A stretch of 64,000 bases of DNA, taken from Mobula hypostoma (taxonomy: Eukaryota). Positions 6,740 to 43,200 of this stretch are shown here, one piece after another. The translations under genes and the position numbers were made by a program. The first letter of the stretch is position 1, and each line of letters opens with the position of its first letter. The notes below the pieces were generated by a model. It was not told where the DNA came from. It did no database searches and saw only the letters and a program-made list of their open reading frames with translations. Location: positions 58,530,001 to 58,594,000 of the forward strand of contig NC_086108.1 in the NCBI RefSeq assembly GCF_963921235.1. The letters are read 5' to 3'.

Positions 6740-8155
6740 TAGGGGGAAGGGGCAGAGGCCCTATAAAGAAGGTGGGGGGAGTGTGGGAAGGAGAAGGCTG
6801 GTAGGTTCCAGGTGAAAAACCAGTAAGGGGAAAGATAAAGGGGTGACATAGGGATAGGGGAAGGGAGGGGGTGGGAATTACCGCAAGTTGGAGAATTCTA
6901 TGTTCATACCAAGGGGCTGGAGACTACCTAGATGGTATATGAGGTGTTGCTCCTCCAACCTGAGTTTAGCCTCATCATGGCAGTAGAGGAGAGGCCATGT
7001 ATGGACATATCTGAATGGGAGTGGGAAGCAGAGTTGAAGTGGGTGGCTACTGGGAGATCCTGTCTGTTTTGGCGGACGGAGCGGAGGTGCTCGACGAAGC
7101 GGTCCCCCAATCTGCATTGGGTTTCACCGATGTAGAGGAGGCCGCACCGGGAGCACCGGATGCAATAGATGACCCCAACAGACTCAGAAGTGAAGTGTTG
7201 CCTCACTTGGAAGTACTGTTTGGGACTCTGAATGGTGGCAAGAGAGGAGGTGTAGGGACAGGTGTAGCACTTGCGCTTACAGGGATAAGTGCCGGGTGGG
7301 AGATCCGTGGGGAGGGATGTGCGGACCAGGGAGTCGCGGAGGTGGAAGTTCCGCCACCTTCAACAGGACCCCACCACTAAGCTCATCTTTCCCTCTCCAC
7401 CCCTCTCCGCCTTCCGCAGGGATCGGTCCCTCCGCGACTCCCTGGTCCACACGTCCCTCCCCACGGATCTCCCATCTGGCACTTATCACTGTAAGCGCAA
7501 GTGCTACACCTGTCCCTACACCTCCTCTCTTGCCACCATTCAGGGCACCAAACAGTCCTTCCAAGTGAGGCAACACTTCACTTCTGAGTCTGTTGGGGTC
7601 ATCTATTGCATCCGGTGCTCCCGGTGCGGCCTCCTCTACATCGGTGAAACCCGACGCAGATTGGGGGACCGCTTCATCGAGCACCTCTACTCCGTCCGCC
7701 ACAACAGACAGGATCTCCCAGCAGCCACCCACTTCAACTCTGCTTCCCACTCCCATTCAGATATGACCATACATGGCCTCCTCTACTGCCATGATGAGGC
7801 TAAACTCAGGTTGGAGGAGCAACACCTCATATACCGTCCAGGTAGTCTCCAACCCCTTGGTATGAACATAGAATTCTCCAACTTGCGGTAATTCCCTCCC
7901 CCTCCCTTCCCCTATCTCTATGTCACTCTGCCCCCTCCCCCAGCTGCCTACCTTCTCCCTCTTGGTTCCGCCTCCTTCTACTACCCATTGTGTTTTCCAC
8001 TATTCTTTCTTCACCTTTCCTGCCTATCATCTCCCTGTTTCCCCTCCCCCACCCCTTTATCTTTCCCCTTACTGGTTTTTCTCCTGGAACCTACCAGCCT
8101 TCTCCTTCCCACCCTCCCCCCACCTTCTTTATAGGGCCTCTGCCCCTTCCCCCTA

Positions 8156-11636: not shown

Positions 11637-11860
11637 AACATGAGGAAATCTGCAGATGCTGGAATTTCAAGCAACACAGGTAAAAGTTGCTGGTGAACGC
11701 AGCAGGCCAGGCAGCATCTCTAGGAAGAGGTACAGTCGACGTTTCGGGCCGAGACCCTTCATCAGGACCCTTTGTCTCAGCTGGAAACGTCGACTGTACC
11801 TCTCCCTAGAGATGCTGCCTGGCCTGCTGCGTTCACCAGCAACTTTTATGTGTGTTGCTG
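11637..11860. mobile_element. Miniature inverted Penelope terminus (fold-back) insertion
   Basis: ~75-bp inverted arms (11670-11745 / 11784-11858) and 10-bp TSD GCCACAAGCA at 11627-11636 and 11861-11870. Confidence 0.88.
11735..11768 (-). ncRNA. Minimal hammerhead ribozyme, intact core
   Basis: Reverse complement GTC-CTGATGA-AGGGTCTCGGCCC-GAAA-CGTC-GAC. Confidence 0.8.
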
Positions 11861-12541: not shown

Positions 12542-12641
12542 AGTTAGTCCTGACGAAGGGTCTCGGCCTGAAACGTCGACTGCACCTCTTCCTAGAGATG
12601 CTGCCTGGCCTGCTGCGTTCACCAGCAACCTTTATGTGTGT
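12542..12641 (+). mobile_element. 100-bp Penelope-terminus mini-insertion carrying a hammerhead ribozyme
   Basis: 13-bp TSD TGCTGCCATGTTT at 12529-12541 and 12642-12654; sequence matches the Penelope 3' end at ~40198-40297. Confidence 0.9.
12545..12582 (+). ncRNA. Minimal hammerhead ribozyme, intact core (predicted cleavage after C12577)
   Basis: TAGTC-CTGACGA-AGGGTCTCGGCCT-GAAA-CG-TC-GACTG: CUGANGA and GAAA boxes, stem I, stem II AGG/CCT, palindromic ACGT in place of stem III. Confidence 0.85.
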
Positions 12642-17013: not shown

Positions 17014-17144
17014 GCAACAGGAATTCTGAAGATGCTGGAAATTCAAGCAACACACATCAAAGTTGCTGGTGAATGCAGCAGGCCAGGCAGCATCTCCAGG
17101 AAGAGGTACAGTTGACGTTTCAGGCCGAGACCCTTCGTCAGGAC
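17014..17144 (-). mobile_element. 131-bp Penelope-terminus mini-insertion with hammerhead ribozyme (core intact, ~17109-17144)
   Basis: 12-bp TSD AATACATAGTGA at 17002-17013 and 17145-17156; reverse complement GTC-CTGACGA-AGGGTCTCGGCCT-GAAA-CGTC-AAC. Confidence 0.88.
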
Positions 17145-19467: not shown

Positions 19468-19567
19468 AACAACAGGAATCCTGCAGATGCTGGAAATTCA
19501 AGTAACACACATCAAAGTTGCTGGTGAACGCAGCAGGCCAGGCAGCACCTCTAGGAAGAGGTACAGT
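19468..19567 (-). mobile_element. 100-bp Penelope-terminus mini-insertion lacking the ribozyme core
   Basis: 13-bp TSD CAAATTATCTCTG at 19455-19467 and 19568-19580. Confidence 0.9.
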
Positions 19568-19839: not shown

Positions 19840-20324
19840 TGCACATCAAAGTTGCTGGTGAACGCAGCAGGTGAGGCAGCATCTCTAGGAAAAGGTACAG
19901 TCGACGTTTCAGGCCGGGACCCTCCGTCAGGACTAACTGAAGGGAGAGCTAGTAAGAGATTTGAAAGTGGGAGGGGGAGGGGAGATCCAAAATGATAGGA
20001 GAAGACAGGAGGGGGAGGGATGGAGACAAGATCTGGACAGGTGATTGGCAAAAGGGATATGAGAGGATCATGGGACAGGAGGCCCAGGGAGAAGGGAGAA
20101 GGAAAAAGGAGGAGGTGGGGGGAAACCCAGAGGATGGGCAAGGGGTATAGTCAGAGGGACAGAGGGAGAAAAAGGAGAGTGAGAGAAAGAATGTGTGTAT
20201 ATAAATAACGGATGGGGTATGAGGGGGAGGTGGGGCATTAACGGAAGTTAGAGAAGTCAATGTTCATGCCATCAGGTTGGAGGCTACCCAGACGGAATAT
20301 AAGGTGTTGTTCCTCCAACCTGAG
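19840..20324 (-). mobile_element. Penelope-like 3' fragment (end of GIY-YIG ORF, 3'UTR, hammerhead at 19898-19935 with CTGACGG variant)
   Basis: High similarity to 39830-40297; LEEQHLIFRLGSLQPDGMNIDFSNFR on the minus strand. Confidence 0.88.
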
Positions 20325-21104
20325 TTATGTTAAATTGTCTTGCTTCAAACGAGACAGCACTAGCTATGTTATTAGCACCAGTATGACTGAGTTCAAGGAA
20401 GCGTGCATACCAAACCAGTTTCACCATTTAGCACATCAAACATGGTCACAGGTATCAATCAATAGTTGGGATATTTGTGTACTCAGAAAGTCAACCTTCA
20501 TAGCATTAATTTTGGGTATCTGGTATCTCTGTCTCCAGAGGCTTTCAGGCCATCTGTGTGAATTATTTTGTCCAAATTATTTTGTATCTGAAAAACATCA
20601 CATACAGATAATGTCAACTAGTAACAAAGCATTATAAATGTTAGGAAGCATTGAGGATTGCTAGAAATGACAAGGAGAATGACAGAAAAATGAGGTGACA
20701 GAAAGCAAAACTAGAATTCATTCCTCAACCTGAGACGGATGACTCATTCATCAGTGACTTGTTGGTATGGTCTTTTAGTTCATAAGATTTATACCTGTGT
20801 TGGGAAATCCTTTGTCGTTTATAAGTGTTTTGTGACTTGGAAATCTTTCATAAATCAGAAATCCTCTGTGAGCGTTAAATGTGAGAATGACCTACTTCTG
20901 CTTCTAAAACTTATGGTCTTATGGTGTTAAGAATTGTTGGTCTAAAATAAAACATGTATCATTAAAAATAAAATAAACTATGTTTAAACTACTCTGTTAG
21001 TGGATATTGGCAGCTAGACTTCATTACAGAGACTAGACAGGGAAGTAAAGTAGATAGGGAACTAGCCTTGAAAGACTTGTTGATACAGTCTCTCTATAAT
21101 GAGA

Positions 21105-37487: not shown

Positions 37488-37920
37488 CATATAGGATCCT
37501 GCTATATTACCTACCCTTTCTGTAGCTGTAATAGTATCCCTGACCAGTAATGCCACACCTCCTCCCCTTTTTCTGCCCTCTCTATCCCTTTTAAAGCACT
37601 GAAATCCAGGAATATTGAGAATCCATTCCTGCCCTGGTGCCAGCCAAGTCTCTGTTATGGCCACTACATCATAGTTCCATGTATGTATCCAAGCTCTCAG
37701 TTCATCACCTTTGTTCCTGATGTTTTTGCATTGAGGTACACACATTTCAGCCCTTCTACCTTACTGTCTTTACACCGTTTATTCTGCTTCTCTTTCCTCA
37801 AAGCCTCTCTATATGTTAGACAAAAACAACAGGAATTCTGCAGATGCTGGAAATTCAAGCAACACACATAAAAGTTGCTGGTGAACGCAGCAGGCCAGGC
37901 AGCATCTCTAGGAAGAGGTG

Positions 37921-37958
37921 CAGTCGACGTTTCAGGCTGAGACCCTTCGTCAGGACTA
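37921..37958 (-). ncRNA. Minimal hammerhead ribozyme, intact core
   Basis: Reverse complement TAGTC-CTGACGA-AGGGTCTCAGCCT-GAAA-CGTC-GACTG. Confidence 0.83.
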
Positions 37959-38211
37959 ACTGAAGGAAGAGTGAGTAAGGGATTTGAAAGTTGGAGGGGG
38001 AGGGGGAAATCCAAAATGATAGGAGAAGACAGGAGGGGGAGGGATGGAGCCAAGAGCTGGACAGGTGATAGGCAAAAGGGATATGAGAGGATCATGGGAC
38101 AGGAGGTCCAGGAAGAAAGACAAGGCGGGGGGACCCAAAGGATGGGCAACGGGTATATTCAGAGGGACAGAGGGAGAAAAAGGAGAGTGAGAGAAAGAAT
38201 GTGTGTATAAA

Positions 38212-38706
38212 AGCTATGCCTGCCTTCTTGTTATGGGCACCCGTATGGGTCCCAGCTATGCCTGCCTTTTTGTTGATGGGCACCCGTATGGGTCCCAGCT
38301 ATGCCTGCCTTTTTGTTATGGGCACCCGTATGGGTCCCAGCTATGCCTGCCTTTTCATTATGGGCACCCATATGAGTCCCAGCTATGCCTGCCTTTTTGT
38401 TGATGGGCACCCGTATGGGTCCCAGCTATGCCTGCCTTTTTGTTGATGGGCACCCGTATGGGTCCCAGCTATGCCTGCCTTTTTGTTATGGGCACCCGTA
38501 TGGGTCCCAGCTATGTCTGCCTTTTCATTATGGGCACCCATATGAGTCCCAGCTATGCCTGCCTTTTTGTTGATGGGCACCCGTATGGGTCCCAGCTATG
38601 CCTGCCTTTTTGTTGGCATTGGCACCTGTATGGGTCCCAGCTATGCCTGCCTTTTTGTTGGCATGGGCACCCATATGGGTCCCAGCTATGCCTGCCTTTT
38701 TGTTGG
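38212..38706 (+). repeat. Tandem array, 11 full units plus 1 partial unit of 42-45 bp, derived from Penelope RT coding sequence
   Basis: Unit AGCTATGCCTGCCTTTTTGTT(G/GGC)ATGGGCACCCGTATGGGTCCC; lengths 42,43,42,42,43,43,42,42,43,45,45; native copy at ~38740-38783. Confidence 0.97.
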
Positions 38707-40199
38707 TCCTCCCACTTCCTCCAAACTAAAGGTGTAGCTATGGGCACCCGTATGGGTCCCAGCTATGCCTGCCTTTTTGTTGGCTTTGTGGAACAATCTA
38801 TGTTCCGTGCCTATTCTGGTATCTGTCCCCCACTTTTCCTTTGCTACATCGACGACTGCATTGGCGCTGCTTCCTGCACGCGCGCAGAACTCGTTGACTT
38901 TATTAACTTTGCCTCCAACTTTCACCCTGCCCTCGTTTACCTGGTCCATTTCCGACACTTCCTTCCCCTTTCTAGATCTTTCTGTCTCTGTCTCTGGAGA
39001 CAGCTTATCCACTGATGTCTACTATAAGCCTACTGACTCTCACAGCTATCTGGACTATTCCTCTTCTCACCCTGTCTCTTGCAAAAACACCATCCCCTTC
39101 TCACAATTCCTCCGTCTCCGCCGCATCTGCTCTCAGGATGAGGCTTTTCATTCTAGGATGAGGGAAATGTCTTCCTTTTTTAAAGAAAGGGGCTTCCCTT
39201 CCTCCACTATCAACTCTGCTCTTAAATGCATCTCCCCCATTTCACGTACATCTGCTCTCACTCCATCCTCCCGCCACCCCACTAGGAATAGGGTTCCCCT
39301 GGTCCTCACCTACCACCCCACCAGCCTCCGGGTCCAACATATTATTGTCCGTAACTTCCGCCACCTCCAACGGGATCCCACCACTAAGCACATCTTTCCC
39401 TCCCCCCCCGCATTCCGCAGTTCCGCAGGGATCTCTCCCTATGCAACTCCCTTGTCCATTCGTTCCCCCCATCCCTCCCCACTGATCTCCCTCCTGGCAC
39501 TTATCCGTGTAAGCGGAACAAGTGCTACACATGCCCTTACACTTCCTCCCTTATCACCATTCAGGGCCCCAAACAGTCCTTCCAGGTGAGGCAACACTTT
39601 ACCTGTGAGTCGACTGGGGAGATATACTGCGACCGGTGCTCCCGATGTGGACTTTTATATATTGGCGAGACCCGACGCAGACTGGGAGACCGCTTTGCTG
39701 AACATCTACGCTCTGTCCGCCAGAGAAAGCAGGATCTCCCAGTGGCCACACATTTTAATTCCACATCCCATTCCCATTCTGACATGTCTATCCACGGCCT
39801 CCTCTACTGTAAAGATGAAGCCACACTCAGGTTGGAGGAACAACACCTTATATTCCGTCTGGGTAGCCTCCAACCTGATGGCATGAACATCGACTTCTCT
39901 AACTTCCGCTATTGCCCCACCTCCCCCTCGTACCCCATCTGTTACTTATTTTTATACACACATTATTTCTCTCACTCTCCTTTTTCTCCCTCTGTCCCTC
40001 TGAATATACCCGTTGCCCATCCTCTGGGTCCCCCCGCCCCTTGTCTTTCTTCTCGGACCTCCTGTCCCATGATCCTCTCGTATCCCCTTTGCCTATCACC
40101 TGTCCAGCTCTTGGCTCCATCCCTCCCCCTCCTGTCTTCTCCTATCATTTTGGATCTCCCCCTCCAACTTTCAAATCTCTTACTCACTCTTCCTTCAGT

Positions 40200-40237
40200 T
40201 AGTCCTGATGAAGGGTCTCGGCCTGAAACGTCGACTG
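40200..40237 (+). ncRNA. Minimal hammerhead ribozyme, intact core (predicted cleavage after C40232)
   Basis: TAGTC-CTGATGA-AGGGTCTCGGCCT-GAAA-CGTC-GACTG in the Penelope 3' terminus. Confidence 0.85.
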
Positions 40238-43200
40238 CACCTCTCCTAGAGATGCTGCCTGGCCTGCTGCGTTCACCAGCAACTTTTATGTGTGTTGCTC
40301 TATATGTTAGATCTGGCTTTACTCCATGCACTTCTTTCATTGCTCTATCGCTCCGGATCCCATCCCCTCGCAAATTAGTTTAAACCCTCCCGAACCATGC
40401 TAATAAACCTACCTGCAAGGATATTGCTCCCCCTCGAGTTCAGGTGCAACCCATCCAATCTGTACAGGTCCCACCTTCCCCAGAAGAGATCCCAATTATC
40501 TGAAAATCCAAAACCCTGCTCCCTGCACCAACTCCTCAGCCACGCATTCAACTGCCATCTCCTCCAATTCTTACCATCACTGTCACGTAGCACTGGCAGC
40601 AGTCCTGAGAACGCCACCCTTGAGGTCCTGTTCTTCAGCCTTCTGCCTAGTTCCCGAAACTCACACTTCAGGACCTCATCCCTCTTCCTGCCTATGTCAT
40701 TGGTCCCAACATGTATCATGACTTCTGGTTGCTTTCCCTCTCGTACCAGGATGTTGTGCACCCGGTCAGAGACATCCCGGACCCTGGTACCCAGGAGGCA
40801 ACAAACCATGCGGGTGTCCTTCTCATGTCCACAAAATCTCCTGTCTGCTCCCTTGACTATCGAGTCTTCAATTACAATAGCTCTCCTCTTCTCCATCCCA
40901 CCCTTCTGCACCACAGGGTCAGAGTCAGTGCCGGAGGCCCTGCCACCGTGGCTCACACCTGGTCGGTCGTCCCCGCCAACAGTATCCAGGACGGTAAACT
41001 TATTATTCAGGGGAATGGCTACAGGGGTGCTCTGCACTACCTGTCTGCTCACCTTTGCTTTCCCCCCTCATTGACCTAAGTTGAATTGTTTGAGGAGTCG
41101 AAAGCTCTTAGGCAGTTTTGGATGCTAGAATTTAGATGTTTGCCAGACTTCCAGTGCCTACAACAGATTTAAATTCCCAGTGTGTGGATGTTTAATACAG
41201 TTTACTTTTAAACTGATGACATGGAGTTAAATTAAACTAATAATTAGAGGTTGACCAGAGCAACGCAAGAAAGAAGCAGACACTCTGCAATAAAACTGAC
41301 TTGGGTATCAATTATAACTTAAAAATGACTGGAAAAAATATCTGGATGACAGGATAAATATTTCCAGATGAATGAGCAAGATATGGTCAGTGTGATATCT
41401 TGAAATACTCAAGTGGAATATCACTGCGAGTACCACTAGTGGAATGATTTGTGGTTTATTAAAGAAGTGTTTATATGTAAAATTATAATAATTGTGATAA
41501 GCATTGACTTTTTTCATTACTTCTACACCTGAAGTCCAAATTCGAGTTTTTTCCAGATACGATAAAGTCTAGCTGTTTCACCAGTCATTTTTCTTTTCCC
41601 TTTGCTTAAAAATAAAACATTTGTCCTTTTATTTTATGCGTCAAAAATGTGGTTAAAATATTGTCACTTTACCAATGTAGCCAGCCTTCTTTTTGCAATA
41701 CTTGGTCTGATCCTTGTAACCATTAAATTAGGAGATCAGAAGTGAAGCATCCACATGCTATCACCTTAATCCATAATTGTTCAGCTTAAGATTGACTAGA
41801 AATCAATTAGAGCAAAAGCTATTTAAGAACTTTCCTTATTCAAAGATTCAAAGCACATTTATTATCAAAGAATGTATAAATTATACAACCTTGAGATGTG
41901 TCTGTTTACAGGCGGCCACAAAAGCAAGAAACTCAAATAACCCAATTTAAAGAAGACCAGAAAACACTGAGTAGAGAAAGACTACATGAAGTATTATCTG
42001 GATCTTGTCATGAAAAGGGGTTTATTAATGCCATTGTTGTAAATCAGCCATTAGGAAACAAGACCACATGATTTTTTTAATCAAGTTTGATAGCTATAGT
42101 TCAATCTGAATATAGGGTCTTAAATGTAAATGAGGGTTGAGTTGGCTGTGGTTGACTGGGACATTCTATAAAAAAAAGTATGACAATGGACAGACAGTGG
42201 CTAGTATTTAAAGAACTAATACATGATTTGCCAAATCATATTTCTTAAGCCACAAAACCCACCAGGAAAATTGATTCACCTGTAACAGCAAGGAAAATAT
42301 TAAAGATAGTATTGAAAAAATCAAAGGAAGAAGCATATAAAGCTGCCAGGTATAAAGGAAATATTGAATGATTTTTAGAATTTAGCAAGAGGACCAAAAA
42401 ACCAGATAAAGGAACACAGTATGAGAGTAAAATAAAAAACATTAAAAAAATTTATATTTATGCAAAAGGGAAGAAGATAGCAAAGGTAAATGAGGGTCCA
42501 TTACAAATACAGTAGCAGTAAAATTTGTTACAGGGAATAAGAAATGGACAGCAAAATTGTATTTATCTTTATGGAATGTAAAAAGATAGTCTCAGATATT
42601 AGCGAATTGAGGAAAAATAGGTGGTAAAGTTTCTTTTAGAAAATACCAAAGAACTGAGACAAAACTAGCATTAGGTGCTGAGATTTTGTGGCCACGTGTA
42701 AGTATTAAGAAGAGGTACTTATAGAGATGTATTACAAATATTGAAGTCTGGCAGGATAGCAAAATAATGTTCCCTTTATTTTTCAGGACAACATCTTCAG
42801 CAATGAGACCCAAGTTATGTCCATTCAGCTCCCATGTTCCAGTGAGATTGTTTACAGAGTTCACACCAGATTTGTGAAACAGGGATTCCTTTTTGAGCTT
42901 TGAGAGTCGACAAAAGATTTAAAAAAAGTTACTTGTACAGTGTTTTATAAGGTTGTTTTTATATTCATATTTATTGTGATTTTTGTGTTTATTGTGTTTT
43001 TCTATGCGGCATCTGACATAAAGTGACAATTATTCTGTCCTCCTTCACACTCATGTTCTGAATAACAATAACCAATCTTCAATCTGGATAAATATCGAGT
43101 ATGGTGTGCAGCTTGGAAGAGATCTTGCAGATGATTCCAAAGTACTTACTGCTCTTACCTATTGCTCTTCTGAGCTGGGTCTGTGTCAACAGAGAAATAT

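Follow-up and report, generated by a model that had tools for sequence, protein, structure and literature searches.

In a 64,000-nt stretch of the Mobula hypostoma genome (contig NC_086108.1, positions 58,530,001 to 58,594,000 of the forward strand; hereafter the window), one insertion of a Penelope-like element (PLE) carries a tandem array at the point where its inverted arm meets its body. The array, described in an earlier note on this DNA as 11.5 units and a native copy inside an insertion bounded by target-site duplications (TSDs), was analysed together with other copies of the family, in which short re-copied segments recur at the broken 5′ ends.

The window insertion and its array

The array is real in the window sequence. 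It consists of a partial outermost unit (U0, 21 nt) and 11 units of, in order, 43, 42, 42, 43, 43, 42, 42, 43, 45, 45 and 44 nt, followed by 33 unrepeated nt and then by the native copy at 38740. The 33 nt (38707-38739) are absent from the array, as had been claimed. Units start with ATGGG, except U10, which starts with ATTGG. The ragged unit ends GTT, GTTG, GTTGGC and GTTGG are prefixes of the native TTGTTGGCTTTG and so do represent different-length reads of the native sequence; the CATT end of two units results from point mutation. An inverted 5′-truncated copy, a 30-40-nt tail and a TSD are all present (Table 1). The empty site is represented by contigs of other host-repeat copies, which join 37806 to 40298 with 14 letters in common. 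Element positions were counted along a natural copy (L042), +1 being the A of ATGGG (window 38740), and the 3′ and 5′ boundaries of a repeated unit in sense orientation are termed y and x.

Four of the units do not record separate copying events. Units U1-U4 and U5-U8 differ at 1 position across their 213-nt overlap and have four private substitutions in common; a 170-nt block of four units was evidently duplicated at the DNA level after the array had formed, and by its single difference this duplicate is younger than the core array. The 11.5 rounds of copying supposed earlier thus reduce to 4-8 primary jumps, with four distinct junctions in the window (y44/x-32, y45/x1, y43/x1 and y42/x1). 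The primary 7.5 units carry 8 substitutions in 325 nt, compared with 9 in 347 (2.6%) between arm and 3′ end and 12 in 691 (1.7%) between body and family. Since these divergences are similar, the core array is about as old as the insertion.

It is most improbable that the array was produced by the assembly. The whole array is spanned by none of the read contigs listed, and its exact unit count rests on the assembly. Against an artefact, the units carry private substitutions, dozens of other loci have the same architecture, and a 68-nt contig (depth 33, read run X2) is identical to 38500-38567, spanning the U7/U8 junction and a base private to U7. Run X2 may derive from the assembly's own sample, and the read pile-up at the insertion is swamped by repeats.

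The element has a reverse transcriptase (RT) followed by a C-terminal GIY-YIG domain in one open reading frame. The window copy is frameshifted, and its RVT_1 (E=0.079) and GIY-YIG (E=0.0035) matches are both short of the cut-off. Natural copy L042 has a 489-aa frame with RVT_1 at E=8e-4, and relatives of this frame of ~800 aa (P0013, P0021) carry both domains. The nearest named protein relatives are from rays; a PDB search with a short RT piece gave noise only. What we take to be a hammerhead-core motif lies in the 3′ repeat (40205-40229) and in the inverted arm (37929-37953), and no Rfam hammerhead match was obtained at E≤1. A linker upstream of GIY-YIG, CKRNKCYTC (CX4CxxC), was spotted by eye and has the CX2-5CxxC form that defines this EN+ PLE type (PMC8557442; here and below, statements on cited papers refer to the part of each source available to us). 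By its domains and linker the family is placed as EN+ Penelope-like, of the Neptune or Nematis type. At eight loci (L285, L304, L311, L313, L316, L325, L329 and L337) the match to the reference ends at the same position, -1492, which coincides or nearly coincides with the edge of the reference copy and is possibly the full-length 5′ end of the family.

Table 1. Features of the insertion, in window positions
Feature	Position	Strand	Remarks
Left TSD CTCTATATGTTAGA, 14 nt	37807..37820	.	Empty-site joint 37806/40298
'Tail' extension, 37 nt, inverted arm only	37821..37857	-	Sequence comparison; 30-40-bp tail known from the available part of PMC8557442
Inverted arm, copy of element 3′ end (39950-40299)	37858..38211	-	9 mismatches in 347 aligned columns
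Outermost partial unit U0 (21 nt; element +22 to +42)	38212..38232	+	1-nt overlap with arm at join
Units U1-U4 (43, 42, 42, 43 nt; element +1 to +42/43)	38233..38402	+
Units U5-U8, later 170-nt duplicate of U1-U4	38403..38572	+	Four private substitutions in common; read contig 38500-38567
Units U9-U11 (45, 45, 44 nt)	38573..38706	+
Truncated body 5′ end, element -32 to 0, unrepeated, 33 nt	38707..38739	+
Strongest local RNA hairpin (10-bp lower stem, AU bulge at unit start, GUAU loop)	38730..38770	+
Native copy of repeated segment, in RT frame (MGTRMGPSYACLFVG)	38740..38784	+
5′-truncated, frameshifted Penelope-like body (RT end, CxxxxCxxC linker, GIY-YIG, 3′ repeat)	38707..40297	+
Long hairpin loop, GIY-YIG region (element +949..+991)	~39685-39727		5′-end enrichment
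Right TSD	40298..40311	.	Empty-site joint 37806/40298

The host of the insertion (37500-37806 and 40312-41079) is itself a multicopy repeat, of which empty-site copies exist; its minus-strand reading frame at 40375-41067 is presumably esterase-like. The window also holds an older head-to-head Penelope insertion, ~80% identical, at 6872-7892, and further short terminal Penelope pieces at 11686-11843, 12542-12631, 17062-17144, 19517-19566 and 19851-20325.

Re-copied terminal segments across the genome

Exact searches for the window junctions and for CCCAGCTATGCC repeats matched the window alone. That the window array is unique was nevertheless rejected, as a subfamily variant, CCTAG, had hidden other arrays from the exact searches. 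A DNA search combined with a looser pattern revealed repeats over the window's segment at 16 loci, all of them at this hairpin and at a 5′ junction; the junctions vary. Both the formation of the array at an insertion junction and its recurrence in other family copies, as anticipated in the earlier note, are borne out by these loci.

Anchored searches, which detect only periods of 24-60 nt with exact 12-mers, were carried out at further positions. The +991 anchor (GIY-YIG site) gave 47 matches at 39 places; the +847 anchor gave 25 matches, of which 9 places belong to the family; two unstructured anchors gave 9 matches each, with about three junction loci apiece. All five anchors tested have arrays, as do unselected sites. 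Among the 30 family places parsed at +991 and +847, 27 are terminal, the others being two simple internal duplications (L066, L110) and a complex locus (L071). The 16 places parsed later are likewise at 5′ junctions. Arrays thus lie nearly always at insertion junctions and not at random internal sites. Candidate TSDs were seen at 12 of the 15 array loci checked, some short enough for chance. The +847 matches outside the family (L095-L098, L101-L109, L111) were not parsed, and L112 is a diverged non-array.

An unselected set of 209 loci, all from one contig, provided 181 distinct truncated body ends. Nine of these carry a sense re-copy of at least 12 nt (95% confidence interval 2.6-9.2%), one of them (L302) in three or more copies, and antisense re-copies occur on three arms of the set. 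These counts indicate that re-copied terminal segments at 5′ truncation junctions recur genome-wide, in about 1 in 20 broken copies.

One re-copy junction is common to L079, L082 and L351 and another to L341 and L343, with unrelated flanks; L079 and L082 also have a four-unit array and 4 bases upstream in common. It appears that completed junction structures have been transferred by copying to new sites. For a satellite of 115 kb with 26/27-nt units (G000:C50:2010682-2125492), no match to the family and no Penelope sequence directly at its edges were found, so no link to the family is claimed.

Boundaries, junctions and structure of the re-copied units

The boundaries of the units behave differently from what had been described. 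Across loci the constant boundary is not the ATGGG start but the 3′ one. Values of y cluster at +40 to +45 in 11 of 16 loci and at +1006 to +1011 in 17 of 20, and 0 of 5000 simulations reached either count. Inside a locus, y is steady within ~2-3 nt despite a several-fold change in jump length (window, L046, L147, L149, L060, L062, L100, L302 and L344), with L067 as the exception (1009, then 997). At the same y, jumps of 76 nt and of 42-45 nt occur in the window, of ~160 and 47 nt in L147, and of ~138 and 49 nt in L100. By comparison, x is locus-specific and often equals the body 5′ end, ranging from ~-117 to +26 at the window's hairpin site. In 11 of the 13 loci in which x shifts, the shift is downstream from one unit to the next outward one (p ~0.01), the pattern expected from an eroding template. 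In cDNA order, the enzyme would come back to one place as its template shortens. The RT had been supposed to stop at one structural boundary and to re-prime 42-45 nt back; a y that stays fixed whatever the jump length reverses that geometry.

Homology was determined at 80 distinct junctions from 57 loci. Left out of this count were the internal duplications (L066, L110), the complex locus (L071), a duplicate (L082), L293, one antisense join in L156 that is spurious, those window junctions that point mutations had distorted, and control loci lying internally or belonging to diverged subfamilies (L203, L206, L208, L209, L216-L219); L204 and L220 entered the direction rule only. The junctions comprise 35 that are blunt, 9 with 1 nt of overlap, 10 with at least 2 nt and 26 with inserts. 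Fifteen inserts are of 1 nt, and 12 of these are A or T. With 0-1 nt of overlap at 44 of the 80 and untemplated bases at others, the junctions have the marks of end-to-end jumping. Mean microhomology at the 54 insertion-free re-copy junctions was 0.65, compared with 0.70 for a local random null. A later set of 21 junctions (excluding L079, L082 and L343), 15 of them without insertion, gave a mean of 0.73. Plain arm/body joins of the unselected set, by contrast, are enriched, with a mean of 1.69 (n=26 of 42; p = 3e-4). Thus re-copying and final joining look like different reactions, and the chance level at re-copies argues against slippage, Pol theta repair and telomerase-style realignment.

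Templated insertion by DNA polymerase theta (Pol theta) and replication slippage both leave microhomology at re-priming sites, and Pol theta needs a few bases of it; no excess was found at the re-copy junctions. Host end-joining of the Pol theta type, with repeated priming and abortive synthesis while the cDNA ends are joined, is in our view improbable for this reason, the more so as plain joins of the same family are enriched. It would account for the position of the arrays at the joint that the host must seal, and it agrees with a patchwork junction in the family (L254) and with the host-dependent extra nucleotides at LINE 5′ junctions (PMC4245944).

Slippage or unequal exchange after insertion, starting from one duplication and followed by indels at the junctions, is scarcely credible. 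Growth at the DNA level did take place in the 170-nt duplication, and arrays with identical junctions exist. In the window, however, at least 2 indels would have to fall within one stretch of 4 nt while the rest of every unit stays free of them, and the 76-nt junction would have to arise separately. This explanation also fails to account for the restriction to 5′ junctions, the missing microhomology, the common 3′ boundaries and the direction in which x moves. The earlier judgement that simple DNA slippage is insufficient is upheld by the chance-level microhomology.

The native segment folds as a hairpin, as had been stated, and the fold is larger than claimed. Its predicted energy is -24.0 kcal/mol (38730-38770), with z = -3.58 for 38707-38800, and in the 3-kb loci of the two natural copies that were scanned no other 45- or 60-nt window folds as strongly. 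For three hairpin anchors y lies at predicted stem bases (p = 0.04, under 2e-4 and 0.015). The generalization that re-entry is always at a stem base failed on 12 unselected re-entry points (mean 49th percentile for stem bases), and in view of this and of the arrays at the two unstructured anchors the dependence on the hairpin that the note had proposed is not supported. Enrichment of truncation at the window's hairpin was also rejected (8 of 88 in 65 nt), whereas 5′ truncation points are about three-fold enriched in the GIY-YIG hairpin loop (14/68 vs 16/229, p = 0.002). Predicted structure shapes hot spots and is not required for arrays.

These data bear on telomerase-like repeat addition, in which a hairpin sets the boundary where the RT halts on an intact template, and the RT then realigns 42-45 nt back. 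In its favour, the hairpin is the strongest of the element, units begin at the inner margin of its lower stem, with U0 beginning at the other arm, the outer unit of L047 also starts at +22, and 5′ ends are enriched in the GIY-YIG loop. Rough per-junction rates, estimated by hand, are a few-fold higher at the window's hairpin than at three of four other anchors (roughly 0.4-0.6% at +991, +649 and +511; 1-3% at +29 and +847), but they rest on denominators of 1-14 sampled ends and were not used as evidence. The explanation is largely refuted, and we consider it highly improbable. No alignment region is seen, the 54 and the 15 insertion-free junctions being at chance microhomology; the ATGGG boundary is locus-specific; unstructured sites give arrays, and truncation is not enriched at the window's hairpin. 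An intact RNA should often allow escape upstream, yet arrays are nearly always terminal. A dedicated template with one fixed 5′ boundary was not found either, as x varies between and within loci.

The template most likely ended at the array, since nearly all arrays are terminal. Antisense pieces are informative in this respect. In L060 an antisense copy of 1036-1015 follows the arm, ends in A7 and adjoins sense units ending at 1014 (1014/1015); in L349 two antisense copies of 1052-1025 adjoin sense units ending at 1024 (1024/1025). In L353 the antisense and sense pieces abut within 1-2 nt. From these few loci we infer that the two exact abutments arose as if the template had been nicked there. 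Re-entry at a fixed place independent of distance, taken with the two exact abutments, suggests that the RT may have re-entered where its template physically ended on the 3′ side. In L099 and L349 the order is arm, antisense re-copies, sense re-copies, body; this needs re-copying of a sense template, beyond second-strand synthesis on cDNA alone.

Two other observations concern the arms. In L060, L074, L099, L349 and L354 arm and body end within 0-3 nt of the same element position, as if both had been copied from one RNA, or one from the other. L269 contains at 838-870 a 33-nt antisense piece (element +110..+78) between the arm end at +1000 and the body start at +457; as it comes from a part of the element missing in both arm and body, it suggests a jump onto a separate RNA piece.

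On balance we lean, with modest confidence, to the following reading of the junctions: the array consists of re-copies of the last 42-45 bases of a 5′-truncated insertion, made at the time of insertion by the element's own RT, which jumps end-to-end and homology-free back onto the same broken piece of RNA. Both target ends would prime cDNA on element RNA, giving arm and body. The RNA would be broken on the 5′ side and nicked a short way downstream (in the window, around +42 to +45), the nick probably being the work of a host RNase H or marking the limit of the RNA-DNA hybrid. The RT would run off at -32, re-enter at the nick and repeat this, the fragment being trimmed to +1 and finally to +22. 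The two cDNA ends would then be joined, the step that shows microhomology in this family.

A stutter during second-strand synthesis is a rather unlikely alternative. Here the RT extends the 3′ end of the arm or target on the single-stranded tip of the body cDNA, stops at annealed RNA (+42 to +45) and jumps back to the tip, until in the end it reads through. This would account for the fixed 3′ boundary and the blunt junctions, as well as for the small upward drift of y in the window (42, 43, 42, 42, 43, 45, 45, 44 from left to right). At hairpins the boundary is the stem base, and there the cDNA tip would be released as the RNA refolds; the family contains inverted local pieces (L183/L184), and cDNA-templated snap-back is documented for R2 (PMC11371274). 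The stutter requires, however, that the cDNA tip lengthen with time in 11 of 13 loci, and alone it cannot yield antisense re-copies directly after the arm (L099, L349, L275, L295).

Several points weigh against end-to-end jumping on a broken RNA. Exact abutment is seen in 2 of ~10 loci able to show it. The first jump in the window (GTTGG/TCC) has 6 nt of microhomology if one C was later lost, and point mutation is the probable source of some of the 1-2-nt 'insertions'. In many multi-unit arrays the junctions are identical (e.g. L047, L073, L079, L086, L090, L156, L213), which one jump and later DNA amplification would explain equally well; the 42/43-nt units of the window could likewise come from fewer events. 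Some loci are not independent (L079/L082/L351 and L341/L343, with junctions but not flanks in common), and the direction rule has exceptions in L071 (mixed) and L220 (4 nt the opposite way). We infer the RNA nick and the RT activity from junctions, and the strand polarity as well; sense units would show a similar pattern if a polymerase resumed at the 3′ end of the cDNA and halted at RNA left in place.

Comparison with known systems and significance

The closest parallels come from enzymes that switch templates end-to-end. The group II intron GsI-IIC RT makes ladders by end-to-end switches needing one untemplated base (PMC8363836), R2 proteins jump to further RNAs (PMC11371274), and a PLE RT initiates on RNA without homology to the primer (PMC11167929). 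As proposed for the Penelope arrays, concatemers of GsI-IIC RT and R2 form by 5′ run-off and 3′ re-entry with 0-1 nt of pairing and untemplated bases. Their acceptors are either additional RNAs in vitro or, at transgene junctions, non-coding RNAs and whole templates, whereas in the Penelope arrays the same 25-60-nt terminal piece of the element was copied over and over in vivo and became fixed in the germ line. DRT2 likewise makes tandem repeats by cycling on a template tens to 120 nt long (PMC12039810), but with a dedicated non-coding RNA, fixed boundaries and a function; the Penelope boundaries vary by locus and the product is by-product-like.

With canonical EN+ PLEs (PMC8557442; PAc, PMC11167929; Adineta, PMC3846280) the window insertion has in common RT and GIY-YIG, inverted arm, 37-nt tail, TSD and a putative hammerhead-core motif. 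The available parts of those papers describe palindromes, microhomology joins and whole-unit junction tandems, and not short reiterated terminal segments. LINE 5′-junction extras resemble the arrays in that sequence is added at the 5′ joint of truncated retrocopies, and differ in being several host-dependent bases, not tandem copies of the element's own end (PMC4245944). The junction signature is not described in the consulted portions of the papers on PLE structure (PMC3846280, PMC8557442) or on L1/LINE junctions (PMC2912911, PMC4245944), and in the literature outside subscription papers and supplements no description of such re-copy arrays was found for Penelope elements. The signature is real, recurrent and apparently undescribed.

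Telomerase belongs to the sister RT lineage (PMC8557442) and also copies one template segment repeatedly onto a free DNA 3′ end (PMC12039810). The Penelope arrays, unlike its products, have no dedicated template, alignment region, uniform unit or chromosome-end location. As read from their junctions, they fall short of telomerase-type repeat addition on two defining points, and the telomerase-like translocation proposed earlier is not upheld, as an alignment region is missing.

A more far-reaching proposal, which we put forward tentatively as possible rather than probable, is that the Penelope RT has a built-in, alignment-free form of repeat addition: on reaching a broken template end, the enzyme would keep hold of an RNA fragment of 25-60 nt and cycle on it processively.

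Completion of PLE insertion, that is, RNA removal, second-strand synthesis and arm/body joining, was called unvalidated in the one in vitro study (PMC11167929). The junctions offer testable rules for it: a fixed re-entry base, an eroding 5′ boundary, and homology at the final joint but not at re-entry. About 64,000 segments of the family extend into the GIY-YIG region (36,660 exact matches, with 34 exact among 60 copies). At ~5% of ends, some thousands of cases are to be expected in the genome. As PLE RTs are the sister group of telomerase, an RT cycling on an RNA fragment would, if true, bear on the origin of repeat addition. Were alignment-free repeat addition to hold, these thousands of junctions would be a base-resolution fossil record of a proto-telomerase reaction; they would also record the sites of host RNA nicking during insertion and would be a seedbed for minisatellites.
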